Assembly (NCBI GenBank): GCA_937901905.1
Contig: CALDIF010000084.1
Span: forward strand, 8,290-72,289
Source of the DNA: an uncultured Porphyromonadaceae bacterium
GTDB taxonomy: Bacteria; Bacteroidota; Bacteroidia; Bacteroidales; Muribaculaceae
Reading direction: 5' to 3'
Length of the DNA: 64,000 nt
Position 1 is the stretch's first letter. Each line of letters starts with the position of its first letter. Under the pieces are notes generated by a model. It ran no database searches. It worked only from the letters and a program-made list of their open reading frames with translations, and had not been told where the DNA came from. Positions 6,211 through 64,000 of this stretch are shown piece by piece. The position numbers and the translations under genes were made by a program.

Positions 6211-6252
6211 AGTTATTGAGATTTTTGTATTTCAATTATTCAAATTTTTAAA

Positions 6253-6833: not shown

Positions 6834-6986
6834 CACTTGCCAGTTGACTCTACAAACAGTGTAACAGAACAGTGTAAAAATGGGGGAGAATTTGTTTTTT
6901 AGACATTATTTTGCGAAATTTGCATTTCAGACCGATTTGATAGGTCTTGATAACAGATGGTCGTTTAACATTCTAAAATTGTCATC

Positions 6987-13448: not shown

Positions 13449-13459
13449 CTTGTAGGTAA

Positions 13460-14089: not shown

Positions 14090-14091
14090 TG

Positions 14092-15192: not shown

Positions 15193-15265
15193 AATATTTT
15201 CAAACAACAAGGAGGCGCCGCCCTCAAGCGACGACCTCCTCTACAGTGTTCGTTTCATCAGTGAC

Positions 15266-15955: not shown

Positions 15956-16000
15956 CTCGTGTAAACTGTAATTTGGTTACTAACTGATATTTCTAATATG

Positions 16001-16008
16001 CAAAGGTA
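16001..16008 (-). promoter_or_regulatory. -7 box (TACCTTTG on the minus strand) for the OmpA-family gene
   Basis: The plus strand reads CAAAGGTA, 46 nt upstream of the ATG at 15955. Confidence 0.45.
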
Positions 16009-16090
16009 AACAATTTTATCAATTTACTGCTCAAATTAACACATTTTATCAGTATTTTGCAATATAAAATTCGCCATAGGTAATCGCGCC

Positions 16091-18079: not shown

Positions 18080-18123
18080 GATGATATAGGGTGATAAAAG
18101 GGCTTCTACAGTAAGCGACATTA

Positions 18124-18165
18124 ACGACACCGCTGCAAGCATCGTTAATGTCGCTGTTATTTACA
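18124..18165 (-). terminator. Hairpin with a 14-bp perfect stem between the phosphosugar mutase gene and fbp
   Basis: AGCGACATTAACGA-N14-TCGTTAATGTCGCT. Confidence 0.55.
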
Positions 18166-18202
18166 CAATATTGTCAATTTTCAAGAATGACACGCTGTCA
18201 AA

Positions 18203-19957
18203 TCAAATTCCGAGGTCACGGCAAATGGTGTCAATCTTGGCATCTGCCCACTCGTTCTTGGCATCGTAAGCATCGGCACTCTCAAGAGTATCGTGTACCT
18301 CAATGTAGAACTTGATCTTGGGTTCGGTGCCACTGGGACGTATTGAAACCTTGGTGCCGTCCTCAGTGAAATATTGCAACACGTTACTGGTGGTGGGCAT
18401 TTCAAGAGGAGTCACCTCGCCTGTCTTGACATCACGCTGCTGCAGCAACTGGAAGTCGCGAATAAGCACCACGGGCGAGCCGGCGATTTCTTTTTGGGGA
18501 TTTTCGCGGAAGTTCTTCATCATCAACGCGATTTCCTCGGCACCGCTCTTACCCGGACGCACGACACTGATGCCACGCTCCTTGCTGTAACCGTAGGTCA
18601 TGTAAACATCAATGAGCATGTCGTTGAGTGACATTCCCTTATCCTTTGCCCATGCGGCAATCTCCGCCATCAAGGGGATTGACGAAACCGAGTCCTTATC
18701 GCGGGCGAATGTCTCGGGAAGGTAGCCGTAACTCTCCTCACCGCCACCGAGGTACTTGGCTTCGGTGCCCTCAAGGTCGCGCATCACAGTTGCAATCCAC
18801 TTGAAGCCGGTGTAGCAGTCGTACATCTTGATGCCTAATTTCTTGGCCATCTTGGCTATCAACTCGCTGGTCACAATGGTCTTGACAATGTACTCGTTGC
18901 CAGTCAAACGCCCCAACTCCTTGTTGCGAGCCATCAAGTAATAGTGGAAAATGATCTGGATTTGATTGCCGTTAAGCAGGTCGTAAACGCCCTTGGTGTT
19001 CTTGATGACAACTGCGATACGGTCGGCATCGGGGTCGCTTGCCATGGCGATGTCTGCCTGCGTCTCGGTCGCCTTGTCGATTGCCATCTTCATCGTGGGA
19101 GGCATCTCGGGGTTGGGTTTTCCGTCAACAGTGGGGAACTCGCCGGTCATCACGTCCTGCTCGGGCACGTGAATGATGTTGGTAAAGCCCCAACGCTCCA
19201 ATGAACGCGGAATGATGTAACGTCCCACGCCGTGGATAGGAGTATACACGATTTTGAGGTCGTGTTGACGGGCATCAATATCGGGACTGAGTGAGAGCGT
19301 GTGTATTTGCTCGAGATATTGCTCATCAATGTTCTCACCGATAGTCTCAATCAAGTCGGGATTACCCTCAAAGCGCACTTCGCTGATGTCCTTGATTGCC
19401 TCCACATACTTGATGATATTGACATCATGAGGCGATACGACTTGGGCACCGTCGTCCCAGTAAGCCTTGTATCCGTTGTACTCCTTGGGGTTGTGGCTCG
19501 CAGTGATGTTAACACCGCTTTGGCAACCGAGCAGGCGCACAGCGTAACTCAACTCGGGTGTCGGACGGGGACCTTCAAACAAGTACACTTTAATGCCGTT
19601 AGCCGAGAAGACATTGGCAACAGTCTCGGCAAACAAGCGACTGTTGTTGCGCACGTCGTGTCCCACAACGACCTTGATTTGGTCAAGGTGCTTGAATGCC
19701 TCGTTGAGGTAGTTGGCAAGACCTTGAGTAGCCGAGCCGACAGTGTAGATATTCATGCGGTTGCAACCGGCACCCATGATGCCACGCAAACCACCGGTAC
19801 CGAACTCAAGAGTTTTATAGAAGGACTCAATCAAATCGGTCTTGTCCTCACTGTCGAGCATACGGCGCACCTCGGCACGTGTTGCCTCATCATAACCATC
19901 GCCCAACCATTGTTGTGCGACTGCCGTCACTTGTTGTAACAATTGTTCGTCGTTCAT
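18203..19957 (-). CDS. Phosphoglucomutase/phosphomannomutase-family phospho-sugar mutase
   Basis: 584 aa with the active-site loop TASHNPKEYNGYK and the Mg-binding segment ASDPDADR. Confidence 0.9.
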   Translation of the reverse strand: MNDEQLLQQVTAVAQQWLGDGYDEATRAEVRRMLDSEDKTDLIESFYKTLEFGTGGLRGIMGAGCNRMNIYTVGSATQGLANYLNEAFKHLDQIKVVVGHDVRNNSRLFAETVANVFSANGIKVYLFEGPRPTPELSYAVRLLGCQSGVNITASHNPKEYNGYKAYWDDGAQVVSPHDVNIIKYVEAIKDISEVRFEGNPDLIETIGENIDEQYLEQIHTLSLSPDIDARQHDLKIVYTPIHGVGRYIIPRSLERWGFTNIIHVPEQDVMTGEFPTVDGKPNPEMPPTMKMAIDKATETQADIAMASDPDADRIAVVIKNTKGVYDLLNGNQIQIIFHYYLMARNKELGRLTGNEYIVKTIVTSELIAKMAKKLGIKMYDCYTGFKWIATVMRDLEGTEAKYLGGGEESYGYLPETFARDKDSVSSIPLMAEIAAWAKDKGMSLNDMLIDVYMTYGYSKERGISVVRPGKSGAEEIALMMKNFRENPQKEIAGSPVVLIRDFQLLQQRDVKTGEVTPLEMPTTSNVLQYFTEDGTKVSIRPSGTEPKIKFYIEVHDTLESADAYDAKNEWADAKIDTICRDLGI

Positions 19958-48231: not shown

Positions 48232-49242
48232 CTACTTGTCGTAAGCATCGAGAGCGTTGCGCAACTCGTACTGAATTTGAGTGACCACAGCCGGTGGTGA
48301 AATGATGCGCACACCGGCACCGAAGCCCAACATGACAGAGTAAAACTCCTTGTTGGGTATTAGCGACACCTCAAAGGTCACCGCTCCGTCACTGTGACGC
48401 TCCACCTCATGCTGACTGTGGTGAAGGGGTTTGGTGGATATATATGCCGCTTGCAGGCGTGATGCCTTGAATTGTATTGTTTGCCTCACTCCGATGCGGG
48501 TAACCCCTATAATGTCATCAAAGTAAGTTGCCGGATCGAAACGCGGATTGTCGCGATAGACAAAGTTCTCCATCACTTTGAAGTCAACAATGCGATCGAG
48601 TGCGAAATTATATAACTTGTGATCAGATGCACGCGAACAAAACAGGAACCAACGATTGTTGTATTCCTTGAGCATGTGTGGGAAGACGATATAGTTTTGT
48701 GGCTGTCGCGCATTGAACGACAGGTAACGCACCTTGATGGTCTCGCGCCTGACAATGTGATTGTATAACGGATTAAGCAGTTCCAGCCCCTTGAAGTCGT
48801 CGTTGCGTTCAAAGTCCACCACAGGATACTTGCGACCGCGCGCCATACCTATACTGTCCTGCAAACGACTGACAATGTCACTCATGCGGTCAAAATGGTT
48901 GAAACGTTCCATTTGACGCAACAAGTCAACCGCCTCGCTGATGCGGTCGATGTCGGCAGGTGTGAGCGGCAGTTTAGTGATGGAATAATCGGGGTCACTA
49001 TACCTGTAATACTTGTGGTCGTACACCTCAATGGGAGCTTCATAACCCAACTTCTCGCTACGCATTATTTGTATATCCCCCTGCACCGTGCGTACACTCA
49101 CACCGTCGCGCTTGCCCTCGAACTCACAGAGCGCATCGGAACACGCCCTCACCAAGTCTTGCAGCGTCCACCGACGATAACGATTACGCAAACAACGATC
49201 TATCGTCTTGTAACGAATTAATGCATTCTTATTTACCGGCAT
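48232..49242 (-). CDS. HTH + WYL-domain transcriptional regulator
   Basis: 336 aa with an N-terminal wHTH-like region (ALIRYKTIDRCLRNRYRRWTLQDL) and a WYL-type core (NNRWFLFCSRASDHKLYNFALDRI). Confidence 0.75.
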   Translation of the reverse strand: MPVNKNALIRYKTIDRCLRNRYRRWTLQDLVRACSDALCEFEGKRDGVSVRTVQGDIQIMRSEKLGYEAPIEVYDHKYYRYSDPDYSITKLPLTPADIDRISEAVDLLRQMERFNHFDRMSDIVSRLQDSIGMARGRKYPVVDFERNDDFKGLELLNPLYNHIVRRETIKVRYLSFNARQPQNYIVFPHMLKEYNNRWFLFCSRASDHKLYNFALDRIVDFKVMENFVYRDNPRFDPATYFDDIIGVTRIGVRQTIQFKASRLQAAYISTKPLHHSQHEVERHSDGAVTFEVSLIPNKEFYSVMLGFGAGVRIISPPAVVTQIQYELRNALDAYDK

Positions 49243-49387: not shown

Positions 49388-50569
49388 ATGAAGACCTATC
49401 TCATTACCGGCGGAGCGGGATTTATAGGCTCCAATTTTGTAAAATATGTGCTTGACAAGTGGGGCACCGAAGTCAGTGTTGTTATACTTGATGCGCTCAC
49501 CTATGCCGGCAATTTGACGAGTTTGAGTGATGTCCTCGACTCGGACAACGTGACAATGGTGCGTGGCGACATCGGTGACAGCGCTCTCGTTACAACGTTG
49601 TTGAGAACACACAACCCTGACTTTATCGTCAATTTTGCCGCCGAGAGTCATGTAGACCGCAGTATCACCGGTCCGCGCCTATTTCTCGAAACAAACATTT
49701 TAGGAACACAGAATTTATTGGAATGTGCCCGCCACGCGTGGAAGGGCGAGGAACACTTGCACAAATTCTTACAAGTCAGTACCGACGAGGTGTACGGCTC
49801 GCTGAATAAAGAATATGATGAGCCACGTCCGCTCGTTGTGAGCGAGGCATTGAAAGAAGTCGTCGGCACTCGTGACGACCTCGTGTGCTACGGCTCACTC
49901 TTTTTCACCGAGCAGACACCTGTCGCGCCACGGTCGCCTTACAGCGCAAGTAAAACATCGGCCGATTTGCTCACGCTCGCCTATCACGAGACCTACGGCT
50001 TGCCGGTGAACATCACGCGTTGCAGTAACAATTACGGTCCCTATCACTTCCCGGAGAAACTGATTCCGCTTGTGATTAATAATATCTTACAAGGCAAGTC
50101 ATTGCCGGTGTACGGCAAGGGGCTCAATGTGCGTGACTGGCTTTACGTGACCGATCACTGCAAGGCGATAGATCTCGTTTTGCGTCACGGTCGTGTGGGA
50201 GAGATATACAATATAGGCGGATTTAACGAGCAGAGCAACATTGATATTGTAAAACAAATAATTGCCATTATCGCTCGCATCATGCACACCGAGCCCGATT
50301 ACCGCAGGTTGCTCGAGTGTCCTGTCGAGGTGATTAATGAGGACTTGATCACCTATGTTACCGATCGTCCGGGGCACGATATGCGCTACGCCATTGACCC
50401 GACAAAGATAGCGACCGAATTGGGGTGGTATCCCGAAACGCCGTTTGCCACCGGCATCGAACTCACCGTACGTTGGAATCTTGACAATCGCCGGTGGGTC
50501 AAAGATGTCACGTCGGGTGAATACATGCAATACTACGAGCGACAATACAACGGTCGTCATGATAATTAA
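49388..50569 (+). CDS. rfbB: dTDP-glucose 4,6-dehydratase
   Basis: 393 aa with GGAGFIGSNF (Rossmann fold), the SYSASK catalytic YxxxK context and a DRPGHDMRYAID motif. Confidence 0.92.
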   Translation: MKTYLITGGAGFIGSNFVKYVLDKWGTEVSVVILDALTYAGNLTSLSDVLDSDNVTMVRGDIGDSALVTTLLRTHNPDFIVNFAAESHVDRSITGPRLFLETNILGTQNLLECARHAWKGEEHLHKFLQVSTDEVYGSLNKEYDEPRPLVVSEALKEVVGTRDDLVCYGSLFFTEQTPVAPRSPYSASKTSADLLTLAYHETYGLPVNITRCSNNYGPYHFPEKLIPLVINNILQGKSLPVYGKGLNVRDWLYVTDHCKAIDLVLRHGRVGEIYNIGGFNEQSNIDIVKQIIAIIARIMHTEPDYRRLLECPVEVINEDLITYVTDRPGHDMRYAIDPTKIATELGWYPETPFATGIELTVRWNLDNRRWVKDVTSGEYMQYYERQYNGRHDN

Positions 50570-50644
50570 TTCTCATACGGGCACTGCTTGCCCCCACGAG
50601 AGCCGAATAACAATAAAATAACACCTAACACGTCAACCGATAAC

Positions 50645-51547
50645 ATGAAAGGAATCGTACTTGCCGGAGGCAGTGGTACACGACTTTATCCCATCACCCG
50701 AGGCATATCCAAACAGTTACTGCCCATATATGACAAACCCATGGTATACTACCCTATCTCGGTACTCATGTTGGCAGGAATTCGAGAGATCTTGATAATC
50801 AGCACACCACACGACTTGCCGTTGTTCCGTCGTATGTTGGGTGACGGTTCGTCACTCGGAATACAATTCAGTTATGCCGAGCAACCTCGTCCCGAGGGCT
50901 TGGCTCAAGCATTTATTATCGGGCGCGAGTTCATCGGCGATGACGACGTGTGCATGGTGCTGGGTGACAACATTTTTTATGGTCAGGGGTTCACAGGTAT
51001 GCTACGTGATGCGGTGAGGCTCACGAGCGAGAGCCGCACGGCACATTTGTTCGCCTATCCCGTGCCCGATCCGCAGCGGTTCGGCGTGGTGGCTTTCGAT
51101 AACAACGGACGTGCGACAAGCATTGAGGAGAAACCCGTCAATCCCCGGTCACACTATGCCGTTACCGGTCTATACTTCTATCCTAACGACGTGACTCGTG
51201 TTGCAGCCGAAATCAAGCCCAGCGCTCGCGGCGAATTAGAGATAACGAGTGTCAACGAGTGGTACTTGGAACGGCGACGAGTGCAAGTAACCACGTTAGG
51301 TCGTGGCTTCGCATGGCTCGACACCGGCACATTCTCGTCCATGCTCGATGCGTCCAACTTTGTCCAGACTATCGAAACATTGCAAGGCATTCAAGTGGCT
51401 GCATTGGAAGAAATTGCCTATCGCAAGGGTTGGATCGATCGCGAACAACTGCTCACACTTGCTGCAGTAATGGAGAAAAACCACTATGGTCAATACTTAA
51501 TCAACCTCGCCAATAATGGAAAACAATACCCGACCACAACTGATTAA
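50645..51547 (+). CDS. rfbA: Glucose-1-phosphate thymidylyltransferase
   Basis: The protein begins [33 protein letters not shown]. The start at 50645 is preferred over the ORF-track start at 50588. Confidence 0.93.
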
Positions 51548-51968
51548 CTTGTCGCAGATAACCGACCGTCGCGGCAATCTCACCGCTATCGAAAGTGCCG
51601 GTGAATTGATACCATTCGAGATCAAGCGAGTTTACTATTTATATGATGTGCCTGCCGGAGCCGAGCGAGGCGGACACAGTCATCGCTCGTGTCATGAGGT
51701 GCTGATTGCGCTCAGCGGCAGTTTTGATGTCACTATTGACGACGGTCGCCGGCATCGCACGATCACCCTCAATCGTCCTTTTCAAGCCCTGCACATCGTG
51801 CCGGGAATATGGCGCACATTACAAAACTTTGCGTCGGGGTCGGTGTGTCTCGTGTTGGCAAGCGAGCACTACGACGAGTCGGACTATGTGCGCCGTTATT
51901 TGTCATTTTTGAAGTTGAAACGCGAGGAGCCTGCCGGTGCTCGTGTCACAATCGGAGACCTCACATGA
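51516..51968 (+). CDS. dTDP-4-dehydro-6-deoxy-hexose 3,4-ketoisomerase (FdtA/QdtA/WxcM-like cupin)
   Basis: 150 aa. [12 protein letters not shown]...[24 protein letters not shown] matches the FdtA family. It overlaps the rfbA 3' end by 32 nt. Confidence 0.75.
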
Positions 51969-53107
51969 ACATTCCCTTTCTTGACCTGAAAGCGTCAGGC
52001 GCAGCGATTGAAGCGCAGTTGATCGCAGCGGCGACCGATGTGATAACGAGCGGTCGCTATTTGCGTGGCGAGCAAACTGCGGCACTTGAGCGAGATGTGG
52101 CACGGTTGTGCGAAACGCGCCACTGCGTAGCGGTGAGTAACGGACTTGATGCCTTGCGACTCGTTTTACGGGCATGGATTGAACTGGGCTTGTTACACCA
52201 CGGCGACAAGGTTGCGGTGCAGGCAAACACCTACGTGGCGAGCGTACTCGCCATCAGCGACATGGGGCTTGTGCCCGTCCTCGTGGAGCCGTCATTGCAA
52301 ACGATGAACATTGACACCGATGCCCTGCGCGAAGCGGTCGAACACGATAAAGGCATACGGGCTGTGATGCCGGTACACCTCTACGGTTCACCTTGTTGGG
52401 ACACTACATTGCTCGACGTTGTCGAGCAACACGGTTTGCTCGTACTGGAAGATAATGCACAAGCCATCAATGCCACGTCACCCCACATCGGGATTAACGG
52501 CAAGTTCAAGACCGGCTCACTCGGTAATGCGGCGGCTTGCAGTTTTTACCCGACAAAAAACCTCGGAGCACTGGGCGATGCCGGTGCCGTGACGACCGAT
52601 GACACCACACTTGCCGATACCGTCAGGGCGTTGGCAAACTACGGCAGCGACCGACGTTACCACAATATATATAAGGGGTATAATTGTCGCATTGACGAAA
52701 TACAGGCCGCCATGTTGCGTGTCAAGATCAAGCACTTGGAAACCGAGACAACCCGACGACAACTCATAGCCACGACCTACGATGAGCACATCAGCAATCC
52801 TGTCGTGACTCGACCGCTGATTAATAACAACCGTGGGCAGGTGTGGCATCAGTACGTGATACGCGTGCGCTGCGGTGCACGCGACCGCCTGCGCGAATAT
52901 CTCGCCGGAGCCGGTGTGGGCACCGACATTCATTACGCCGTGCCACCTCATCGACAGCCATGCTATGCCGGTGCTTTCAATAACATTTCATTACCGCTTA
53001 CCGAACAGTTGGCGAGCGAGGTCGTCAGCCTACCTATCGCTGCACCGCTCACCGTGACTCAAGCGACCGAAATTGCCGATTTGATTAATCGCTTCGATGC
53101 AGTTTGA
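51965..53107 (+). CDS. DegT/DnrJ/EryC1/StrS-family sugar aminotransferase (FdtB/QdtB-like)
   Basis: The true start is [10 protein letters not shown] at 51965 (ATGA overlap with the isomerase gene). The PLP-Lys context SFYPTKNLGALGDAG is present. Confidence 0.88.
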   Translation: MNIPFLDLKASGAAIEAQLIAAATDVITSGRYLRGEQTAALERDVARLCETRHCVAVSNGLDALRLVLRAWIELGLLHHGDKVAVQANTYVASVLAISDMGLVPVLVEPSLQTMNIDTDALREAVEHDKGIRAVMPVHLYGSPCWDTTLLDVVEQHGLLVLEDNAQAINATSPHIGINGKFKTGSLGNAAACSFYPTKNLGALGDAGAVTTDDTTLADTVRALANYGSDRRYHNIYKGYNCRIDEIQAAMLRVKIKHLETETTRRQLIATTYDEHISNPVVTRPLINNNRGQVWHQYVIRVRCGARDRLREYLAGAGVGTDIHYAVPPHRQPCYAGAFNNISLPLTEQLASEVVSLPIAAPLTVTQATEIADLINRFDAV

Positions 53108-54500
53108 TTCCTACATATACGGCATTTTTCTGCCCATAGTGTTCGTGTTGTATTGGTCGTTGCGCCACCGCCTCGGAGCGCAAAACCTCTTGTTACTTGC
53201 CGCAAGTTATCTGTTTTACGGCTGGTGGGATTGGCGTTTCCTGTCACTGATATTATTCACCTCACTGACGACTTATTGTACCGGATTGTTTATCAAGCCT
53301 GACGGGTCACGTGGCTCGCGATATTTGACGGTATTGAACATCGTTGTCAACCTTGCTGTGTTGGCGGTATTTAAATATCTGAATTTCTTCGCCACCGAGT
53401 TGTCCCTTTTATTGACGACCATGGGTATTCACGCCGGGTGGACAACGCTCAACCTTGTGTTGCCGGTGGGCATCTCATTCTACACGTTCCAAGCCATCAG
53501 TTACACCATTGACGTGTATCGCGGTGACGTGCCTGCGACCCGTCGTGTTGTGCCTTTTCTCGTATATGTGAGTTTCTTTCCGCAATTAGTCGCCGGTCCC
53601 ATCGAACGAGCGAGCAATCTGCTGCCACAATTCCTGCGTGTGAAACAATGGGATTATGCCGTCGCAGTAACCGGAATGCGACAAATCCTGTGGGGACTGA
53701 CCAAGAAAATTGTCATTGCCGACACTCTCGCGGGTGCGGTAGATATTGATTTCTATCACCCCGGCGCGATGAATCCCCTCGCATTGATAGTGGGCGCCGT
53801 GCTGTTCTCATTCCGGATTTATGCCGATTTCTCGGGTTATAGTGACATTGCCATCGGCTCGGCACGGTTATTGGGCATCAAGTTACAGCCTAATTTCCGT
53901 TACCCCTTCTTTTCGCGTTCATGGCGAGAATTGTGGCAGCGGTGGCACATCTCATTAATGACGTGGTTCAAACTCTATGTTTACTTTCCGTTAGGCGGTT
54001 CGCGTCATGGCAGAGTGCGAACGACAGTTGCCACATTGACAGTGTTTCTGTTGTCGGGACTGTGGCACGGAGCCGACTACACTTTCGTCTTGTGGGGGTT
54101 GGCAGGAGGATTGTTGCTGATACCGTCGGTGTGGTTGCGCCCACAACGCGAAATCGGCGAGCCTCAGTTAAAAGATATTCCGCGATGTTTAGCGGTGTTC
54201 GCCGGTTTCACCGCAGTATTTGTCCTGTTTCGCGTCAACGACATGGCTCACCTCAACGAGTGGCTCGGCACGATTGTGCACGGCAACTATAGCCTCAACT
54301 ACGTTTACGGGTGGGTAGAATTGGTCAAGTACGTTATTCCGCTCGTCGTAGTCGAGTGGTTGGGACGACACGAGGAATTTCCCCTCGCCCGCCTGCCGTT
54401 CCCCACCGTGGTTCGCTGGCTAATCTACTGGACACTGACCGCCTTGATTATTTTCCATTGTCATGGTGTTGATCGACAGTACATTTATTTCCAATTTTGA
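53097..54500 (+). CDS. MBOAT-family membrane-bound O-acyltransferase (AlgI/DltB-like)
   Basis: 467 aa and polytopic, with a conserved His context (LLSGLWHGADYTF). Its start overlaps the aminotransferase 3' end by 11 nt. Confidence 0.88.
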   Translation: MQFDSYIYGIFLPIVFVLYWSLRHRLGAQNLLLLAASYLFYGWWDWRFLSLILFTSLTTYCTGLFIKPDGSRGSRYLTVLNIVVNLAVLAVFKYLNFFATELSLLLTTMGIHAGWTTLNLVLPVGISFYTFQAISYTIDVYRGDVPATRRVVPFLVYVSFFPQLVAGPIERASNLLPQFLRVKQWDYAVAVTGMRQILWGLTKKIVIADTLAGAVDIDFYHPGAMNPLALIVGAVLFSFRIYADFSGYSDIAIGSARLLGIKLQPNFRYPFFSRSWRELWQRWHISLMTWFKLYVYFPLGGSRHGRVRTTVATLTVFLLSGLWHGADYTFVLWGLAGGLLLIPSVWLRPQREIGEPQLKDIPRCLAVFAGFTAVFVLFRVNDMAHLNEWLGTIVHGNYSLNYVYGWVELVKYVIPLVVVEWLGRHEEFPLARLPFPTVVRWLIYWTLTALIIFHCHGVDRQYIYFQF

Positions 54501-54503
54501 ATT

Positions 54504-55538
54504 ATGAAACGCGGATCAATATCACACTTCATCACTCGCACGCTCATTGCAGCATTGCCGTTGGCTATGCTGGTTGTCACATATTTATTGACCGATCCGT
54601 TCCGCGTGATTCGTCACTACGACGACGGGACGGGGGCGCGCAGTGACACCGTGCGTTTTAGCGTGAATGCCGGGTGGGTGGCAATTACCAACTTCGAACG
54701 TTATCAACCGACATACCGCTACGACAGTTTCATTTTCGGGTCGTCGATGTCACAAAATTTTTCGGTTGCTCATTGGCAACAGTACCTGCCCGAGGGGTCA
54801 CGAGCCTATCACATGGATCAATCGATGGAAACAATAGAGGGAATGACCGACAAACTGCGTTGGTTGCTCTCGCGTGGCGACACCGTGCGACACGCCCTCA
54901 TCATCATTGAACAGGAAATGTTACTTCGCGAACCGATTGATGATGATTTCCTTTTTGCCCGACCGCCACAAACACTTACCCTACCGTTTGCTACCGTTCG
55001 GTTCCACATCACTGCATTCAACAGTTTCAAGGATCCCGATTTCCTCTCATGGCGATTTACCGACGGTGATATTCGCTCTGCATGGGGGTTACGGTTTGCC
55101 ACGACCGATATTCAAGACCGCATCAAGGAGTGTAATGAGAGTTATTATGCCCGTTTTGACTCACTCATAGCCGTTGATCCCGAAGAATATTACACGCCCG
55201 AGCGATTGCGTCGCATTGACGTGACCGTTGAGCCGACACCCGAGCGACCGGCAATTGACCGGCATCGCTTAGACCGACTGTTGTCGCTGCGCGACATGCT
55301 TCACCGACATCACAGCGATTACAACATCATCATCGTTCCGCGTTTCAAACGCACGATGTTACACCCGAGCGACCGTGCAGTCCTCATCGCCTTATTCGGT
55401 GCCGGGCGTGTGCACGACTTCTCGCACGACACAGTTCTCGCCGACAATCCCCACTATTACTACGACCACGCTGCACACCCCACATCAGCCACTTGCCGCC
55501 TCCTGCTTGACCTCACCTATCAAGCGATTGCCGAATAA
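54504..55538 (+). CDS. Hypothetical membrane-anchored protein, possible partner of the MBOAT enzyme
   Basis: 344 aa with an N-terminal TM helix. It starts 3 nt after the MBOAT gene. It contains FIFGSSMSQNF, a weak SGNH block-I-like GSS motif. The functional link rests on context only. Confidence 0.5.
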   Translation: MKRGSISHFITRTLIAALPLAMLVVTYLLTDPFRVIRHYDDGTGARSDTVRFSVNAGWVAITNFERYQPTYRYDSFIFGSSMSQNFSVAHWQQYLPEGSRAYHMDQSMETIEGMTDKLRWLLSRGDTVRHALIIIEQEMLLREPIDDDFLFARPPQTLTLPFATVRFHITAFNSFKDPDFLSWRFTDGDIRSAWGLRFATTDIQDRIKECNESYYARFDSLIAVDPEEYYTPERLRRIDVTVEPTPERPAIDRHRLDRLLSLRDMLHRHHSDYNIIIVPRFKRTMLHPSDRAVLIALFGAGRVHDFSHDTVLADNPHYYYDHAAHPTSATCRLLLDLTYQAIAE

Positions 55539-55937
55539 CGCCACAAACTCCGAACCGACTCCGAACACCCCCCTCGCCTGCGACACTTCGCTCCCGACAC
55601 TTCGCACCCGGTGGTTGGTATAAGTCGCTTCTCTCCCATCGCTTCGCTCGCGACATGGCGAGAAAAGTAAGACCGCATATTAATCGTTCCTTGGAGAGGA
55701 ACACTAACCACCCTAACACCTCACGTCTGTTATCGTCTATATTTGCCACGCAGAAATGCGTAAAATTCAGCAGATTAATGGTGCAATTCGTGTAATTAGT
55801 AGTCCCAATTGATGACAAAATGACCGAAAAGTGTACTTCTTCACAAAAACATTGCCCTCGTTGTGCAGAGTTTAGAAATTAAATTGTGCTTTTGTGGAAA
55901 AAATCGGTGTTCTACTACAAAAATATTCCATAACTCG

Positions 55938-56696
55938 ATGGTTTTCGAACGACAATCCTATCTGCAAGAACTCATCTCAGCCGAAGGCAACGAGATGATA
56001 AAAATAGTGACGAGAACTCGCCGCTGTGGTAAGTCATACCTTCTGTTTAATCTCTATCGCAGCCAACTGCTAAAGCGAGGAGTGTATGAAGACCACTTAA
56101 TACAGGTGAATCTTGAAGACCGCCGCAACAAACATTTGCGCAATCCTGATGCGCTGACCGAAGCCGGTATTAACCTCAGTCCGAACACCATTGCTCGCTA
56201 TTTGGCTCACCCTTCACGATGCGTTTCTCATAAGCGAGGCATTGCGCTATGATGTAAAAGGGCGCAAATATATCGGCACCGAAACCAAATATTATTTCGA
56301 GGACATTGGCATCCGTAATACCATTCTTGACTTCCGCCGGTTGGAGTTCAACCACACGATGGAGAATGTCATATATAACGAGCTGCGTCGCCTGCATTAT
56401 AGCGTGGATGTGGGGCGCGTGCAGACTTTCAAGCAAAACAAGGATGTGAAAAGCGTCCGCAGCAACATAGAAATCGACTTCGTGGTAAACCGCCATGACG
56501 AAGGATCTATATCCGGTGTGCCTATGCTTTGCCCGACAAGGAGAAAACCGAACAAGAGCAAGCCTCGCTCATGCAAGTGGGCTACAGCTTCCGCAAGGTC
56601 ATCATCGTGGGTGACCGCTACCATTCCGGCTACAATGAGTCCGGCATCTTTCTCCTCAACATTTACGACTTCTTGTTGGGCAAGGTGCGATTATAG
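55938..56696 (+). pseudogene. Decayed AAA-family ATPase (AAA_14 + DUF4143 type), with an internal deletion plus at least two frameshifts
   Basis: The N-terminal piece MVFERQSYLQELI...TRTRRCGKSYLLFNLY carries a degenerate Walker A. It jumps directly to the DUF4143 region. The text LHDAFLISEALRYDVKGRKYIGTETKYYFEDIGIRN continues in a second frame. The tail AYALPDKEKTEQEQASLMQVGYSFRKVIIVGDRYH...NIYDFLLGKVRL* is in a third frame. Confidence 0.7.
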
Positions 56697-56799
56697 TATT
56701 CCGACGATTTTAATCAGCCCCAAAATCGTATGGGCTATATTGAAAATCAATAGAAACAACGAACTCGTGATAACGGTTTTGCCCTACACAGACTCAATT

Positions 56800-57654
56800 T
56801 CAATATTCCACATAACCGGTGCCATAGCAGTTGTCACAGTTGCTATGATAGTGACCGGCAGGGCGTTCACGGCGACACTCGGCACAGTACTTGAAATCGC
56901 CGGGATCGTATATCATTTTCTCCACTCGCCCTGTGGCTTTACACACATAACATTCGTGTCGCTGCTTTGCACTCCCTGACGATGATGGTGTGACATTGGA
57001 AGCGGGAGGTACTCCGCTGAAATCAAATTGCATATAGGCACCGGGGTTGCTGATGATATTGTTCAGCACATCCATTGGGTTAGTCGATACTTGTTGTTGT
57101 GATGTTTGTGTTCCACGCCATGTAACGCAGAATTGGTCAGACGATCCGGGGTAAACGCTGTTGAGAGAACCATCTGTATTGTATAGATAGAAGTTGGTTT
57201 TAACTAAATATGATTCGACCGACTCGACGTAAGCCCCCTCCGGTGCCTTTATGGCTTCATAGGGCAGAAAAAAGACAAAGTCGTCGTAGCGCGTACAATC
57301 ATAACCCGGTGTGCATAGCCTTATCAAATCTACCGCACCTCGTCCGTCTTGAGAATAGGATGTTTGAGTCGCGGGCACTAAACCGCCGTTCGGATAGGTC
57401 ACGTAAAGGTGGACATCGACCTTGCACCCTTTCACTTCATTGGCAAAGAATGAAATGGTCACTTTCATTCCATTTTTCCCTTCCTCAACGACATTGTGCT
57501 CTATACCCGAACTGAAGATGCTGAACGATGGTGCTGCAACAACATATATCAGCAACGGAGAAAGCAAGTTCAAGACAAAAAGTAATAGCAGTTTGATAAT
57601 ATTGCAGTCTTTTCGGTCGTAAATTGATGATAACAATCTTCTCATAATCGTCAA
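56800..57654 (-). CDS. Hypothetical membrane-anchored protein with a C-terminal DnaJ-type CxxCxGxG zinc-finger module
   Basis: 284 aa with an N-terminal TM helix (IIKLLLLFVLNLLSPLLIYVVAAP). The C-terminus reads CYVCKATGRV...CAECRRE...CDNCYGTGYVEY. I do not recognise the central domain. Confidence 0.55.
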   Translation of the reverse strand: MTIMRRLLSSIYDRKDCNIIKLLLLFVLNLLSPLLIYVVAAPSFSIFSSGIEHNVVEEGKNGMKVTISFFANEVKGCKVDVHLYVTYPNGGLVPATQTSYSQDGRGAVDLIRLCTPGYDCTRYDDFVFFLPYEAIKAPEGAYVESVESYLVKTNFYLYNTDGSLNSVYPGSSDQFCVTWRGTQTSQQQVSTNPMDVLNNIISNPGAYMQFDFSGVPPASNVTPSSSGSAKQRHECYVCKATGRVEKMIYDPGDFKYCAECRRERPAGHYHSNCDNCYGTGYVEY

Positions 57655-57962
57655 TTCCGCAGCACTTTAGTTTAACTTTCTTTATACGTTCCTGAGCAAC
57701 ATTTTGTTGCTCAGGATTTGGCCATGTCAGATTTTTCACTTACCTAAGTGCTGCAAATATAGACAAGTAAAATCATCTGGTGGCAAGTTGCAAAAATACA
57801 AATAAAATCTGAGAAATCATTCTTTTGGTAGGAATATTTCACGTAAGAGAGCAATTCATGTGGAAGTATTTCAGGATTATTTCCGTCGTATAATATTTAG
57901 GACAATATTGATTTAGAATATGTTTTTTCCAAAAAAACAGTCCCCATCTCGCAAAAAAACAC

Positions 57963-57970
57963 TACCTTTG
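57963..57970 (+). promoter_or_regulatory. -7 box TACCTTTG, candidate promoter of the PAPS-reductase/ATPase operon
   Basis: Exact TAnnTTTG match, 12 nt upstream of the 36-bp palindrome and about 420 nt upstream of the first candidate start. Confidence 0.4.
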
Positions 57971-57981
57971 TGGTTTGAAAG

Positions 57982-58017
57982 AGTCATATTCTTTGAATTA
58001 ATTCAAAGAATATGACT
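57982..58017. promoter_or_regulatory. Perfect 36-bp palindrome AGTCATATTCTTTGAATT|AATTCAAAGAATATGACT (candidate operator)
   Basis: Read directly from the sequence. It has 18-bp arms, no spacer and no mismatch, and lies immediately downstream of the -7 box. Confidence 0.6.
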
Positions 58018-58386
58018 GCAATCTCAACCGTTAACGTGTTAACAAACTGAGATTTACATATTAACGTAAAAGCGTTCATTTACGCTTTGTTCTTTGGCCG
58101 CCAAGAACCTAGGAAATTCTGATAACTGCCACAAGAACATAGCAACAATGGCGCACGTGGTGTATATGTTCACCATCTCCACGCCCCATGTGGGCGGAGT
58201 GTGGGTGGGTTATATACAGGCGTGGAGTCTTGTTGCTCGTTCTGGCAGTAAGGCATCCTAGGGCTATTGGTGGCGGACGAGCAACGATAAGAGGCTCCCG
58301 CTTTTCGTTATATGTACCACTAGTAATCATAACATAAACCTGCCGGATGAAGGAGCCCCAACCGACACAAAAATGAAAGCAGATTC

Positions 58387-60942
58387 TTGTTTAAAGTCGT
58401 TTGGGATAGGGAATATAATGGAGTTCGTTTGACGATGTCCTCAAAAGGAGATGCGTTGAACGTGTCGCCACGTCCTGTTTTTTGGGAAGAACTAGACCTT
58501 CTCGGATTAAACAAGCTGGGGTGGATATATCCTCATGTTGACGAGCCTCTATTATGGGCATGCGAGAGAAGATATTTTTACAATGGCGACTTTGTTTTAG
58601 AGGTTAAAGGCGGCAATATCTTTGATTCACCCACAGTTATACAGCAGGAAGGTTTCGAATCTCTGATATTGAAACCTGTAGATATGGAACGCCTCCGCTC
58701 AGTCAACGAAGACACTATGTTCATCATTGAGCATGAGGCGATGGACTTTATCAATCAAACCTTTCGACGATATAAGAATATCCACGACGTCTCAAAAAAG
58801 AACCCCAATCTGGATTTCCAGCAATTGGCCACCAATCTTGGAAAGAAAAATAAAGAAGAGCACGTTGTAGTCAAAGAAGACTGTGATTCTTTTGATGTGA
58901 TGCCATTAAGCAAGGCTGAAGAGTTAGGAAAAGCCCCGATTCTAAATAGCGGCATTGAAATTTTCATCGTTTCATTCTCCGGTGGGAAAGATTCTCAAGT
59001 CGTCCTAGACCTTGTTTCCAGAGTTGTTCCTGCAGAAGATTTTATAGTCATATATTCTGATACCGGCTATGAACTGCCGCCTTCATTGAAACTCTACGAT
59101 GAAGTTAAAGAGTATTACTCCGCAAAATATCCGAATCTAAAGTTCTATACAGCTAAGAATCATCAGCCTGTTTTGTATTATTGGGACGAAATCGGAGCAC
59201 CAAGTCGAATTCATCGCTGGTGCTGCAGCATTATGAAATCCGCCCCTCTTACCAGGTTACTCAAAAGCATTGTGGGCAAGGGGAAGCAACCCAATGCATT
59301 ACTTTTTGACGGAGTAAGGGCAGAAGAAAGCCCGAGCCGTTCAACACGTTCAAGGACAGGACAAAACGTAAAACACAACAAAATTATCAATGTGAGTCCA
59401 ATTCTTGAATGGAGCGCAATTGAAATTTACCTGTATCTTCTTTTCAATAATCTTCCAATCAATGAAGCCTACCGCAGAGGTCTCTCTCGTGTGGGTTGTG
59501 TCATTTGTCCATATTCATCTACATGGAGTGAAGAACTTTGTGGGCAATTATATCCAGATACTCTATCTCCTTTTGTTCACAAGATTAGAGAGGGCCTGGA
59601 AAAATCAAAAACCACTGGTGTTGACAACTACATTCGTACCGGTCGGTGGAAAATGCGCGCGGGAGGAAGATATTTACATTGTGAGTCAAATGTGAATTTT
59701 ATGAGTACATCACCAGACTTTCGAGCTGTAATAACAGCTCCGAAGGAGAACCTCTTGATGTGGCTACATGTGTTGGGAGACTTTAATCTGCAGCAAGAAG
59801 AAAGTATTATATACATAGACTTGAGGCATCAAAAGCATATATACAAATGCTCAATACAAGACAAAAGTGAATCTCTGATTTTTGAGGTTAAAGGTATTGA
59901 TCCAAAAGATGTTGTTTTCATTAGCCATCTAAAAAAAGTTGCGTACAAAGCAACGTATTGTGTTCATTGTGAGGTTTGTGAAGTGGAATGTCCTACAGGT
60001 GCCCTTTCTGTAGTTCCAATAGTAAATATTAACAAAAAGAAATGTGTTCACTGCATGAAGTGCTTAGACTTTGATGGCAAAGGTTGCCATGCTGCAAGTT
60101 CGATAAGTACTTCTGACACAAGTATGATGACTAATCCATTAAAAAATATGGCACAGGGTTCTAAATCAGGCATAAACCGCTATAATGACGGTATTGGTAT
60201 GCGTTCTAATTGGGTTGAGAAATTTTTCGATACCTACGAATTTTTCTTTGATAATAATGACCACGGTCTCAATCCTAAATATCAAATACCTCCCTTCATT
60301 AACTGGCTGCGCGAGGCACTTATCCTTGAACAAGATGGGAAAAATATCACAGAAAGTGGCTTGTATATGGCCAAGGCTTTTACTTCTAAACCACAAATTG
60401 TGTGGGAGCTTATTTTCATTGGTCTTTGTGAGAACTCAGAAATATGTTCTTGGTTCCAAAGTACTATTGATTTTAATCGTACATATACACGTGAAGAAAT
60501 GGATATTATCCTACAAGACAGTTATCCGGATTTGAAAGATCGTACTCTGCGCAATCCTTTCAATTCTCTCCTTAACACATTTAAAGAGAGTCCTTTAGGC
60601 TCAACTATTCCCATTGGTGTACTGTCTAAAGAAAAAAACAAAGTTCTTCTGACGCGTCAACCACATTCAGAGATTTCTTTGTGTGCAGTTGCATACTCAC
60701 TCTATCGTTATGCTGAGCGCCAAAAACGCTATTCCCTAGCGGTTTCTGAGTTTTATGATGAGAACCAAAAGGAGGGCATCTACCGCCAATTCGGTCTCAA
60801 TAAGGATACTTTTGAGCGACTTCTCCTTTCACTTCAGGAAGAAAGCAACCATGTCCTTCGCGCTGAATTGAACATGGGCTTGGACAACATCATCCTTCGA
60901 GAGGATCTCAATTCAATTGACATTCTTAAAATGATGCTTTAA
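58387..60942 (+). CDS. PP-loop ATP pyrophosphatase / PAPS-reductase-family protein with a 2x[4Fe-4S] ferredoxin-type insert and a long C-terminal domain (BrxP-like / DndC-related)
   Basis: 851-aa ORF. The PP-loop SFSGGKDS is at 58972-58995, and RWCCSIMK and GCVICPYSS contexts follow. The ferredoxin motifs are CVHCEVCEVECP (59959-59994) and CVHCMKCLDFDGKGC (60043-60087). The start is uncertain, either TTG at 58387 or ATG at 58435. Confidence 0.75.
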   Translation: MFKVVWDREYNGVRLTMSSKGDALNVSPRPVFWEELDLLGLNKLGWIYPHVDEPLLWACERRYFYNGDFVLEVKGGNIFDSPTVIQQEGFESLILKPVDMERLRSVNEDTMFIIEHEAMDFINQTFRRYKNIHDVSKKNPNLDFQQLATNLGKKNKEEHVVVKEDCDSFDVMPLSKAEELGKAPILNSGIEIFIVSFSGGKDSQVVLDLVSRVVPAEDFIVIYSDTGYELPPSLKLYDEVKEYYSAKYPNLKFYTAKNHQPVLYYWDEIGAPSRIHRWCCSIMKSAPLTRLLKSIVGKGKQPNALLFDGVRAEESPSRSTRSRTGQNVKHNKIINVSPILEWSAIEIYLYLLFNNLPINEAYRRGLSRVGCVICPYSSTWSEELCGQLYPDTLSPFVHKIREGLEKSKTTGVDNYIRTGRWKMRAGGRYLHCESNVNFMSTSPDFRAVITAPKENLLMWLHVLGDFNLQQEESIIYIDLRHQKHIYKCSIQDKSESLIFEVKGIDPKDVVFISHLKKVAYKATYCVHCEVCEVECPTGALSVVPIVNINKKKCVHCMKCLDFDGKGCHAASSISTSDTSMMTNPLKNMAQGSKSGINRYNDGIGMRSNWVEKFFDTYEFFFDNNDHGLNPKYQIPPFINWLREALILEQDGKNITESGLYMAKAFTSKPQIVWELIFIGLCENSEICSWFQSTIDFNRTYTREEMDIILQDSYPDLKDRTLRNPFNSLLNTFKESPLGSTIPIGVLSKEKNKVLLTRQPHSEISLCAVAYSLYRYAERQKRYSLAVSEFYDENQKEGIYRQFGLNKDTFERLLLSLQEESNHVLRAELNMGLDNIILREDLNSIDILKMML

Positions 60943-60952
60943 AAACGAAGTA

Positions 60953-63900
60953 ATGGCAACAAAATTTTCCGACTTTATAAAAATTCAGGATTTTCTTCCT
61001 GTGTACGACATGACGGATGAGTCGTCTTCAGTATGGAGTTCATTCATCCCGACCAAACAGTTCTGTGACCTACTACAACGCAGTGTCACAGCATTCACTT
61101 CCGGGGAAATCAGTAAGCGCCGCTCTATGTGGGTGCGTGGCACTTTCGGAACAGGTAAGAGTCATGCCGGCAGTGTTGTTCGCCACCTGCTCTGCGACCC
61201 AATTGAGGACGTTGACGATTATATACAGAACTTGCCCGGCGAAGCACTTCGTGCCCAGCTTACAGCTATCCGCAAGCAAAAGAAGTATTTCCCTGTGGTG
61301 ATGAAAGGAGTTGAAAGCGCCTATAATATTCCGCGCTTCTCCCTTTCAGTTCAGCGAAAAACAAAAGAGGCTCTTGCGGCGGCCGGACATTCCGATATCG
61401 TGGTTCGTTCTGACTTCGACAAAGCAATCCGTTGGGTCGAGAGTCACAAATCGAGGATTGACGAGTTGATAGCTCTCAGCGATGAATTGGCATCAGAGGC
61501 TCCCACTTACGACAAGCTACTAGCTAAATTGAAATCCTTTGACATCGATGTGTTCCTGCATTTGGAGGAAGTTCTCGCTGTTGACGACACCTACTTATCA
61601 AGCGACAACATCAGCGACTGGCTTGTGGAAGTGGGAAAGGAAATAGAGGAAGCAGGTATTGCCAACGGTTTGATTATCTTTTGGGATGAGTTCACCAGTG
61701 TGATGGACACGCTGAAGAGTGACCGAATCAATGTTCTCCAGAACATCGCCGAGAAATCGCAAAACAACAATGTTTTTCTCTATCTTATTTCCCACCGTAC
61801 GGAGAGTGCCAGTCTTGACGCAAAAGGCAAAGACATCACCAAGATGAGCGACCGCTACGATCTTGTGGACTATCAAATGGATGAAATTTCGACCTACTTG
61901 ATTTTGCGACACACCTTCACCATCTCCAATGAGCAAAAATTGGGAATAGAGACCTGGGGAACAAACAATAAAATTGACAAGCACCTCTATGATTATTTGT
62001 GCGAGAGTAATTCTTTGGAGGAAAAAGACCACATCCAAAACCTATTTCCACTTCACCCATACACAGCCTTCCTATGCTCAAAGATGGCGAACATTATGGG
62101 GTCAGCGAACCGAAGTGTGCTTCGATTTATGAATGACGACAAGAACGGTTTCAAGCAGTTTATAGATGAACCGACAAACTATGAGTTGAAGATGATGCTG
62201 ACTGCTGACTGGCTATGGGACTTCTTCTATTCCGAATTTGCCAATGAGCCACTTTGCACAGCATTTACTAATGTTTTCACCTCACACTTGAGTAAGGTGG
62301 AAAAAATGGGTGATGACTATGTCCGTGTTTTCAAAGTCATTCTTTTGCTCAACGCGCTTAGCGTCAAGTTCAAGAGTTCGCCCGCTAAATATGCTCCCAA
62401 TGAAACAAATCTAAAGTTTATCTTCTCGGGCGACCGCTGCGAGGGTAAAATGAAGATAATCTTAAATTGGCTCGACGAAACCAAGATTATCGCTCGTGAC
62501 ATCTTTGGGGAGTTCAAAATATCGGTTTCAGCCTACAACCCTGCAGAAATCACAAAGGAGAAAGCCGCTGTCACTACAACTTTCAAAACCGCTATTGAAT
62601 ACTTGAAATATAACGACAAGTGTCGTCAGGAAATAACGAGGATTTTCCTTGTCGGAGAGCGCCTTATGCGCAAGTGTGAGCCTCAATTCTATGCTTGTGA
62701 GGAGGCTGAAGCTGTACTGCGCAGCAAATTGAATAAGTACACTCGCGAGAAGCCGAACTTTTTGCACGTTGCTATATTCTTCTCGATTACCGATGAAGCA
62801 AGAGACATCATGGAGAATCGCATTAAAGAGTTCTCGGTGGAATTTGAAAACATGATGTTCATCATTCCTACAGAAGTATTTACATCAACTGCACAAACCC
62901 ATTTCATTGATGCCGTTGCACAAGCGAATGTTAGCCGTTCTCACTTCAACACCGACGATGCCGGTCAGTTTGAGAATGCTGCCAAAGAATACGTTGCAAA
63001 GTGGAAGAACCGCATGAATGGAGGAACGTACGTTATGTACTTTAATGGGCAAAGGTCAAGTGATGGTATATTCAGCAACATCTACAATGTCATCAATAAG
63101 AAGTTCAGTCTTCAGATATTCTCTGCCGGAATGGAAAGCGTAAAACCGCTTCATAACGAATCGATGACCTACTTTGCCAACAAGAACTTCAAGGCTCTAT
63201 CATTACAAATCCTTCAGAAAAGGACCCGAGATGAAATGCTTTCTTTTGGAGGTTCTGTTCGTCCGACTAAACATATCTTCATGGAGGGCGAAAACAACCT
63301 TGTAAGCGACACTTGTGAATTAACCGATGTGGCAAAAGCCGGCTCATCGTGGCTTAACAAAATATGTAAAGAAGTTGATTTGCTTATTGAGGCAGCAAAG
63401 AAAAAGTATGCCGATCGCTTTTCATTGAGCGATATCCTTGTCCCTCTTATGCGTCCACCATACGGGTTGTTTGCCAATCCCGCTAATTATGCTGTGCTTG
63501 GTTTTGCTTTGCGCAAACATAAAGAAGATCTATTCAACCCCAGCACTTCTCAACCTGTAGGTGACGAAAAACTCAATGACATGATTGAGATTTTGCTGAA
63601 GATGTGGGATCAAGGCTCAAGCGAAACGAGCAACAAACTATTGCTCCGTTTCGGCTCAATAGAAGAACGCAATCTAACCAGCATTCTCGGTGAGGTGTTT
63701 AACCTCAGCATTGTCAAAGGAGTAACTATGAGCGATTTAAAGAGCTTAAATTACGCCAAATGGAGTATCACAGAGTTCTGTAAGCAAATTGCCAAATACC
63801 CGCTTTGGTCACTCCTATACTGCGATAAAATCAAGGAAAAGGGTAATTGCAAAAAGGCACTAACCGACTTGATTTCACTCTTTAACCAAGACAGTTATTC

Positions 63901-64000
63901 ATTACCTAAGATTAAAGAGTTGCTACATGAGATTAAGAAAGAACAGATTGACCTCTATGTCCTATTTACCAATGAGTCAAACTACAAAAACGGCTTCAAC
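60953..64000 (+). CDS. Large P-loop ATPase, BrxC/PglY-like (DUF499-type), partial; continues beyond the window
   Basis: Absent from the ORF track because there is no stop in the window. My hand translation from the ATG at 60953 gives 1016 codons with no stop. It begins MATKFSDFIKIQDFLPVYDM. It has Walker A RGTFGTGKSH (61139-61165), a Walker-B-like GLIIFWDEF, and LFPLHPYTAFLCSKMANIMG. It starts 10 nt after the upstream gene. Confidence 0.7.
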   Translation, partial: MATKFSDFIKIQDFLPVYDMTDESSSVWSSFIPTKQFCDLLQRSVTAFTSGEISKRRSMWVRGTFGTGKSHAGSVVRHLLCDPIEDVDDYIQNLPGEALRAQLTAIRKQKKYFPVVMKGVESAYNIPRFSLSVQRKTKEALAAAGHSDIVVRSDFDKAIRWVESHKSRIDELIALSDELASEAPTYDKLLAKLKSFDIDVFLHLEEVLAVDDTYLSSDNISDWLVEVGKEIEEAGIANGLIIFWDEFTSVMDTLKSDRINVLQNIAEKSQNNNVFLYLISHRTESASLDAKGKDITKMSDRYDLVDYQMDEISTYLILRHTFTISNEQKLGIETWGTNNKIDKHLYDYLCESNSLEEKDHIQNLFPLHPYTAFLCSKMANIMGSANRSVLRFMNDDKNGFKQFIDEPTNYELKMMLTADWLWDFFYSEFANEPLCTAFTNVFTSHLSKVEKMGDDYVRVFKVILLLNALSVKFKSSPAKYAPNETNLKFIFSGDRCEGKMKIILNWLDETKIIARDIFGEFKISVSAYNPAEITKEKAAVTTTFKTAIEYLKYNDKCRQEITRIFLVGERLMRKCEPQFYACEEAEAVLRSKLNKYTREKPNFLHVAIFFSITDEARDIMENRIKEFSVEFENMMFIIPTEVFTSTAQTHFIDAVAQANVSRSHFNTDDAGQFENAAKEYVAKWKNRMNGGTYVMYFNGQRSSDGIFSNIYNVINKKFSLQIFSAGMESVKPLHNESMTYFANKNFKALSLQILQKRTRDEMLSFGGSVRPTKHIFMEGENNLVSDTCELTDVAKAGSSWLNKICKEVDLLIEAAKKKYADRFSLSDILVPLMRPPYGLFANPANYAVLGFALRKHKEDLFNPSTSQPVGDEKLNDMIEILLKMWDQGSSETSNKLLLRFGSIEERNLTSILGEVFNLSIVKGVTMSDLKSLNYAKWSITEFCKQIAKYPLWSLLYCDKIKEKGNCKKALTDLISLFNQDSYSLPKIKELLHEIKKEQIDLYVLFTNESNYKNGFN

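Follow-up and report, generated by a model that had tools for sequence, protein, structure and literature searches.

A brxP-brxC-pglZ-brxL operon of BREX type 4 with predicted phosphorothioate chemistry in a Bacteroidales contig from a bioreactor metagenome

What kind of system begins with the two genes that close the 64,000-nt stretch of contig CALDIF010000084.1 analysed here (assembly GCA_937901905.1, an uncultured Porphyromonadaceae bacterium; hereafter the window)? The first encodes a PAPS-reductase-domain protein and the second a P-loop ATPase that runs off the window end, and the original prediction, made from the sequence alone, read the pair as the 5' half of a bacteriophage exclusion (BREX) type 4-like defence locus. 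BREX type 4 was reportedly defined by Goldfarb et al. in 2015. The pair very probably opens an intact BREX type 4 operon, in which BrxP and BrxC would write phosphorothioate (PT) DNA in the manner of Ssp systems and PglZ and BrxL would provide exclusion. The modification chemistry of this kind of system is already published and the locus is one more canonical brxPCZL example; it adds an intact case from a bioreactor Bacteroidales genome and by itself opens no new question. The remaining novelty lies in a family of accessory modules and in a variable region of BrxP.

From two window genes to a complete operon

The first gene, brxP (58387..60942, + strand), is an open frame encoding 851 amino acids (aa) from a TTG start, and its product is a BREX type 4 PAPS-reductase-domain protein resembling a fusion of SspD and SspB. 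The second, brxC (60953..64000, + strand), encodes a P-loop ATPase homologous to SspC; its frame is open from the ATG at 60953 through the window end, 1016 codons without a stop. The two are separated by 10 nt (60943-60952) and lie in DNA with a guanine-plus-cytosine (GC) content of 0.39-0.45 across 56-64 kb, compared with about 0.48-0.56 in most other window DNA. The spacing, shared strand and AT-richer setting that had first drawn attention to the pair were all recovered. Likewise, the motifs ascribed to gene 2 were read from its translation: the Walker A motif GTFGTGKSH (aa 63-71; 61139..61165, + strand), the Walker B motif LIIFWDEF (aa 240-247; 61670..61693, + strand) and LFPLHPYTAFL (aa 364). 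The BrxC fragment held by the window matched three BrxC profiles at E 1e-110 to 1e-130 (PADLOC PDLC02490, E 1.9e-130; PDLC02472, E 3.4e-128); like the profile matches of gene 1, these are well above chance level.

The continuation of the operon was obtained from the source contig (ENA ERZ922529 k127_611234; 103,132 bp, bioreactor metagenome), which was reached through the nearest BrxP homology match, P0001, a protein 100% identical to that of the window. A segment of 22.2 kb was taken from this contig (L037), in which window position p corresponds to position p-48434, and it showed no mismatch to the window over the 15,566 overlapping nt. On L037, brxC is complete (12519-15938) and encodes 1139 aa, of which the window holds the first 1016 codons; the full protein matched the PADLOC profile at E 2.4e-139 over profile positions 3-1127 of 1133. 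It is followed by pglZ (15951-18398; 815 aa; PADLOC PglZ E 1.6e-84; NCBIfam NF033445 BREX_PglZ_4, 530.8 bits for a cutoff of 140) and brxL (18402-19838; 478 aa; PADLOC E 3.5e-195; TIGR02688, 428 bits for a cutoff of 329.3), both outside the window. BrxL also matched the Pfam models BrxL_N (E 5.5e-24) and BrxL_ATPase (E 1.6e-108), and its residues 24-461 aligned to residues 28-459 of the 679-aa solved BrxL in PDB 8emc (E 1.3e-43).

Two small accessory genes complete the operon, whose genes all lie on one strand with spacers of 10, 12, 3 and 1 nt; the surrounding AT-rich island measures roughly 13-14 kb. No methyltransferase (PglX/PglXI) was present among the L037 genes called between and around brxP and brxL. 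At the gene level the locus therefore belongs to BREX type 4, with brxP, an adjoining BrxC with intact Walker A and B motifs, a type 4 pglZ, brxL and no PglX. The brxP-brxC-pglZ-brxL order of type 4, with pglZ and brxL downstream and PglX lacking, is what had been foreseen from the two window genes.

The identity, order and intactness of these genes are matters of observation, and so is their conservation. Scanning a single genome for each GTDB species returned 36 related loci with BrxC 50-85% identical, nearly all in Bacteroidales metagenome-assembled genomes of gut, rumen or faecal origin. PglZ followed BrxC in all 30 related loci that extend beyond brxC, and BrxL followed PglZ in all 27 that extend beyond pglZ, with no counterexample to either. 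A few bins labelled outside Bacteroidales carried near-identical cassettes, which may be binning artefacts or transfers. Immediately upstream of the BREX-4 operon of one related locus (L013), an IetA-IetS defence pair was found at 3143-6839 (PADLOC E 2.3e-153 and 1.4e-242), an adjacency that fits a defence-island setting for the cassette.

BrxP and the writing of the mark

BrxP matched its PADLOC profile (PDLC02510) with residues 1-850 on profile positions 1-775 of 779 (E 5.9e-247), and 2289 homologues were found at E<=1e-20. The public gene call P0001 (835 aa) places its 5' end at ATG 58435, 16 codons downstream of TTG 58387. Look-ups of the exact 851-aa sequence, begun with L or with M, gave no match, in keeping with this later ATG. 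Close BrxP homologues are all 851 aa long and share an N-terminus, MFKV(V/I)WD, that aligns to TTG 58387, and DNA homology to the 36 related loci starts exactly at 58388. Because the length of the homologues, their MFKV start and the onset of DNA homology all match the TTG, comparison of the sequences argues for TTG 58387 as the conserved and better start, that of P0001 being too late.

The PP-loop/PAPS-reductase domain of BrxP spans aa 194-375 (58966..59511, + strand; Pfam PF01507, E 3.4e-32) and resembles PAPS reductases in the PDB (7lhr and 1sur; E 2e-07 to 1e-05). The PP-loop SFSGGKDS noted in the original prediction lies within it at aa 196-203, and the assignment of gene 1 to the PAPS-reductase/ATP-pyrophosphatase fold is borne out by this match and by the PADLOC BrxP profile. 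Residues C279, C280, C371 and C374 form a CC...CxxC pattern that is invariant across 63 homologues and, by analogy with APS reductase and DndC, may bind a 4Fe-4S cluster. Ferredoxin-type 2x[4Fe-4S] motifs follow at aa 518-561 (59938..60069, + strand; Pfam Fer4 PF00037, E 3.4e-05, and related Fer4 families), and their eight cysteines (C525/528/531/535 and C553/556/559/567) are all invariant in the same alignment, as are the catalytic motifs. The C-terminal region (aa 598-850; 60178..60936, + strand) is DUF4007/SspB-like (PADLOC PDLC02511, E 2.2e-18); the Pfam DUF4007 model gave a sub-threshold 23 bits on aa 742-849 (cutoff 27). No Pfam domain matched aa 1-190, a PADLOC 'MTase_II' match was marginal (E 0.0039) and confined to the PP-loop domain, and the AlphaFold model built from 63 close homologues was poor, with a mean predicted local distance difference test (pLDDT) score of 46.9. 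For BrxP proteins generally, the described architecture consists of a PAPS reductase, a Mog1p/PsbP-like alpha+beta domain, a 4Fe-4S motif and then DUF4007, the last of these modelled as a triad of a BrxA-like helix-turn-helix plus two winged helices (PMC12839542).

A different identity for gene 1, as an ordinary DndC or SspD or a metabolic CysH-type enzyme that happens to adjoin an ATPase gene, finds some footing in partial matches to SspD (E 9.8e-14), DndC (E 1.9e-08) and CysH (E 1.5e-17). All of these are confined to aa 192-377, however, whereas the BrxP model spans all 851 aa. As a DndC, the protein scored 27.3 bits against a TIGR03183 cutoff of 290.4, and the flanks yielded no dnd genes. 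As a CysH, APS or PAPS reductase, it scored 64.2 against 165.1 bits (TIGR00434), 67.1 against 235.3 (TIGR02055) and 40.5 against 254.2 (TIGR02057), and an assimilatory CysH is expected to measure about 215-260 aa rather than 851. With no dndB, dndD, dndE, sspA or sspE nearby, and with pglZ and brxL directly downstream, this identity has a negligible probability. Nothing that the original prediction had named as evidence against itself was encountered: pglZ and brxL are present, gene 2 is in the BrxC family, and gene 1 is neither DndC nor CysH.

The SspABCD-SspE/SspFGH phosphorothioation defence, reportedly described by Xiong et al. in 2020 and Wang et al. in 2021, is the system whose chemistry the locus would share. 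One BrxP domain matches SspD, its C-terminus is SspB/DUF4007-like, and BrxC matches SspC. As a candidate identity for the locus itself, an Ssp system was rejected: the matches to SspD and to SspC (partial in the window BrxC, E 2.6e-18) stay at domain level and are far weaker than those to the Brx profiles, the SspD and SspB parts are fused, SspA, SspE and SspFGH are missing, and the partners are PglZ and BrxL instead of SspE or SspFGH. By analogy, then, the locus would work like Ssp without being a member of it. Dnd systems (DndABCDE-DndFGH) also combine a sulfur transferase of the PP-loop PAPS-reductase fold with a P-loop ATPase and turn desulfurase-derived sulfur into PT. They differ in having dndB, dndD, dndE and dndFGH, none of which occurs here, and in a DndC-specific cysteine dyad that BrxP lacks (PMC12839542).

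That brxPCZL systems make PT DNA was shown by Yuan et al. (bioRxiv June 2024; Nat Commun 2026) both genetically and by liquid chromatography-tandem mass spectrometry (PMC12914056). In their account BrxP amounts to SspD fused to SspB, and BrxC is homologous to SspC; deletion of brxC in Bacteroides salyersiae abolishes PT, and brxP, mcrA and brxC together confer it when moved into B. thetaiotaomicron. The genes pglZ and brxL and the accessory genes were dispensable for PT, leaving brxP and brxC as the minimal set, and PT dinucleotides were detected in all of the tested type 4 systems, which came from several Bacteroidales genera (PMC12914056). The statement in the original prediction that type 4 had no published mechanism or modification chemistry is consequently out of date. 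Its alternative, an Ssp- or Dnd-like phosphorothioation module, is the accepted mechanism of type 4, and was mistaken only in being set up as a rival to BREX type 4.

Could BrxP instead make a modification other than PT, such as another sulfur- or adenylate-derived adduct, by means of its extra ferredoxin clusters and N-terminal 190 aa? Its aa 1-190, the alpha+beta domain and the 2x[4Fe-4S] motif are indeed absent from DndC and most SspD proteins. The uniform finding of PT dinucleotides in the tested Bacteroidales systems (PMC12914056) speaks against a different product, as does the end-to-end match of the window BrxP to the general BrxP profile, and such chemistry is very unlikely.

The closest characterised relative in gene content is the brxPCZL system of B. 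salyersiae DSM 18765, also a member of Bacteroidales, whose four core genes, gene order and BrxP architecture are those of the present locus (PMC12914056). The accessory genes differ. B. salyersiae carries mcrA between brxP and brxC, plus other extras (PMC12914056), whereas the present locus has six or seven genes in all, with two module-bearing genes after brxL and no gene of the mcrA type, that is, with a sulfur-binding domain (SBD). A cysteine desulfurase (class V aminotransferase) was found neither among the eleven Pfam-scanned ORFs (open reading frames) of the window, mostly of 340-530 aa, nor among the unassigned ORFs downstream of brxL. In this the locus resembles the reconstitution in B. 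thetaiotaomicron, which relied on SufS (PMC12914056). A 2026 survey in Nucleic Acids Research, which catalogued type 4 in 457 taxa, reports a cysteine desulfurase in 56% of type 4 loci (PMC12839542).

Taken by analogy to this particular locus, PT formation at a marked motif could proceed as follows. Persulfide sulfur would be supplied by a housekeeping cysteine desulfurase and not by a locus-encoded one. BrxP would unite the PP-loop ATP-pyrophosphatase domain, the Fe-S clusters and an SspB/BrxA-like DNA-binding region, and with BrxC it would install PT at a short motif, of which only a fraction of the host copies would be marked.

PglZ, BrxL and the exclusion half

Restriction of phage by the locus would fall to PglZ, which is phosphatase/nuclease-like and extended at its N-terminus, and to BrxL, which would form an MCM-like AAA+ ring. 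As an exclusion half, the two would block replication of incoming DNA that does not carry the mark. This arm is the least secure part of the mechanism. The alkaline-phosphatase fold of PglZ is putative, as no PDB sequence matched the L037 protein, and an inactive STAND domain is fused to many type 4 PglZ proteins (PMC12839542).

BREX type 1 (brxABC-pglX-pglZ-brxL) shares with the locus a BrxC-family ATPase, PglZ and BrxL. It differs in possessing PglX, which is lacking here, and in its mark, N6-methyladenine instead of the backbone sulfur expected of type 4. In type 4, moreover, the BrxA- and BrxB-like modules are carried as fusions within BrxP and PglZ and have no genes of their own (PMC12839542). 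The resemblance to the solved type 1 BrxC (9zn5) is very distant and limited to the P-loop (E 0.3).

Some observations weigh against an intact and active type 4 system. BrxL is a short form consisting of an N-terminal and an MCM-like AAA+ region; the Lon protease domain is missing, a further difference from type 1. The Pfam models PglZ PF08665, DUF499 and DUF6079 matched neither BrxC nor PglZ here, and BrxC had no NCBIfam match either, leaving the family assignment of the two proteins, as predicted from sequence, to PADLOC and NCBIfam models. Of the profiles first suggested for recognising the locus, PF01507 did match gene 1; PF08665 missed PglZ, although BREX_PglZ_4 and PADLOC recognised it, and the placing of gene 2 in BrxC/PglY stood on the PADLOC profiles while its DUF499 label found no Pfam match. 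In addition, heterologous brxC or sspC failed to complement the B. salyersiae brxC mutant (PMC12914056); the components are therefore not freely interchangeable, and activity of the present locus is not to be assumed.

Some of the same facts could be read as describing a purely epigenetic PT module, in which BrxP and BrxC write PT and PglZ and the short BrxL do not restrict, the mark having a role in regulation or redox, or restriction being left to SBD readers. The dispensability of pglZ and brxL for PT is consistent with this, as are the missing Lon domain of BrxL and the SBD genes, that is, predicted PT readers, in many related loci; for gut type 4 systems, phage exclusion is said to await investigation (PMC12914056). 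Against it, every related locus of sufficient length has conserved and intact PglZ and BrxL in strict synteny, and BrxL is the most conserved of the four core proteins, with a mean pairwise identity of 0.87. The two are argued to be functional because they are so strictly conserved. The AT-rich, island-like setting and the IetA-IetS pair adjoining the L013 copy also fit a selected defence system. A PT module without exclusion is accordingly considered improbable, if less so than a different chemistry, and a type 4 operon with both a writing and an exclusion half is preferred. Read in this way, the locus offers material for two problems of type 4 BREX, namely what determines the PT motif, for which the middle of BrxP is of interest, and how the exclusion half senses the mark.

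Accessory genes, variable regions and flanking DNA

Directly after brxL, 18 of the 26 loci with DNA past this gene carry one to three accessory genes on the same strand. Their products share an N-terminal module of about 35 aa (consensus M..EELeLiL.LikKh.LPlSPILEYAIkEK) and differ in their C-terminal domains. A hidden Markov model of the module recovered 29 genes in 19 loci (L037, L002, L003, L004, L008, L009, L012, L013, L016-L020, L027, L028, L030, L031, L033 and L035); in L035, a module-bearing gene stands between brxP and brxC. The two accessory genes on the contig of the window lie 4.3-5.6 kb past the window end and encode 157 aa (L037 19840-20313) and 254 aa (P0121; L037 20435-21199). 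The predicted structure of P0121, of fair confidence (pLDDT 77.6), comprises a helical hairpin and two alpha/beta domains; Pfam and PDB sequence searches gave no match for the protein, and no PDB fold scored better than E 0.1. A 51-aa ORF (L037 20268-20423) overlaps the end of the 157-aa gene in another frame, and the pair may represent a longer gene that has been frameshifted.

One class of accessory proteins, of about 200 aa, joins the N-terminal module to a sulfur-binding domain (profile against PDB 8h0l SBDHga1, E 5.3e-27). Its genes were located in L013 (17323-17931), L002 (7978-8601), L012 (8437-9066), L017 (17324-17935), L027 (17325-17936), L028 (9514-10137), L035 (1757-2377) and L019 (17455-18453); the window's own locus has none. 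Judged by sequence, the class is a predicted nuclease-free reader of PT DNA and probably corresponds to the gene type named mcrA by Yuan et al.

Conservation along BrxP is mosaic. Among 27 full-length homologues, aa 1-380 and 751-851 are 72-90% identical to the window protein, with the exception of L029 (68% and 61%), whereas aa 400-750 (window 59584-60636) fall to only 38-43% identity in half of them. The middle region sorts into about nine clusters at 70% identity, compared with two for each flank. Further variable stretches occur in PglZ (aa 251-500) and BrxC (aa 1051-1100). The hypervariable middle of BrxP is cassette-like and resembles target-recognition domains, and a tie to motif specificity would, by that resemblance, be a matter of speculation. 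A tentative proposal, which we would sooner doubt than accept, is that the accessory proteins of this Bacteroidales BREX-4 lineage form a swappable set docking through the helical 35-aa module, some of them being nuclease-free PT readers and others, among them the two on this contig, bearing domains without recognisable fold relatives, and that BrxP aa ~400-750, which comprises the alpha+beta domain and the first DNA-binding modules, sets the PT motif. If true, the docking module and the motif determinant in BrxP would give a handle on mark reading and sequence specificity in type 4 BREX.

Upstream of brxP lies an intergenic region of 732 nt (57655..58386, + strand), which presumably contains the promoter and leader. 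In the 36 related loci homology reaches no further than the brxP start codon, so that this region lacks conservation and falls outside the conserved cassette. An inverted-repeat search of this region detected a perfect palindrome of 36 nt at 57982-58017 (AGTCATATTCTTTGAATT/AATTCAAAGAATATGACT), which could be an operator or a terminator. A GC-rich imperfect hairpin of ~190 nt follows at about 58090-58280, ~100 nt upstream of brxP and in otherwise AT-rich DNA, with RNA-fold z scores of -4.2 on the + strand and -3.6 on the - strand. Neither the window nor 37 loci contained a second copy of the hairpin. In a metagenome scan with a 22-mer taken from the hairpin tip, one contig (L038) matched; its flanks could not be aligned, and the match was attributed to chance. 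At gathering thresholds no Rfam family matched any part of the window, and at E<=1 the matches near the hairpin were at chance level only; no tRNA genes were found in the window. The Bacteroidota promoter consensus differs from that of sigma-70, making a sigma-70 scan uninformative here.

A candidate regulator was considered in the 336-aa protein with WYL and WCX domains encoded at 48232-49242 (- strand), which has the architecture of BrxR/CapW-type regulators. As the BrxR of this locus it was rejected, since 9 kb of DNA, including an unrelated operon, separate its gene from brxP downstream. This operon (49388-55538, + strand) is of the sugar-nucleotide/surface-polysaccharide kind and encodes a dehydratase/epimerase, a nucleotidyl transferase, FdtA, a DegT aminotransferase, an MBOAT acyltransferase and the product of an unknown gene. 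It is followed at 55863-56979 (+ strand) by two overlapping ORF fragments with sub-threshold matches to AAA_14 and DUF4143; they lie where the AT-rich island begins on its left side and probably represent an ATPase pseudogene with a frameshift. The gene that immediately precedes the BREX operon is an ORF of 281-284 aa without a family match (56800-57654, - strand), with a hydrophobic N-terminus and a cysteine-rich C-terminus that resembles a DnaJ-type zinc finger.

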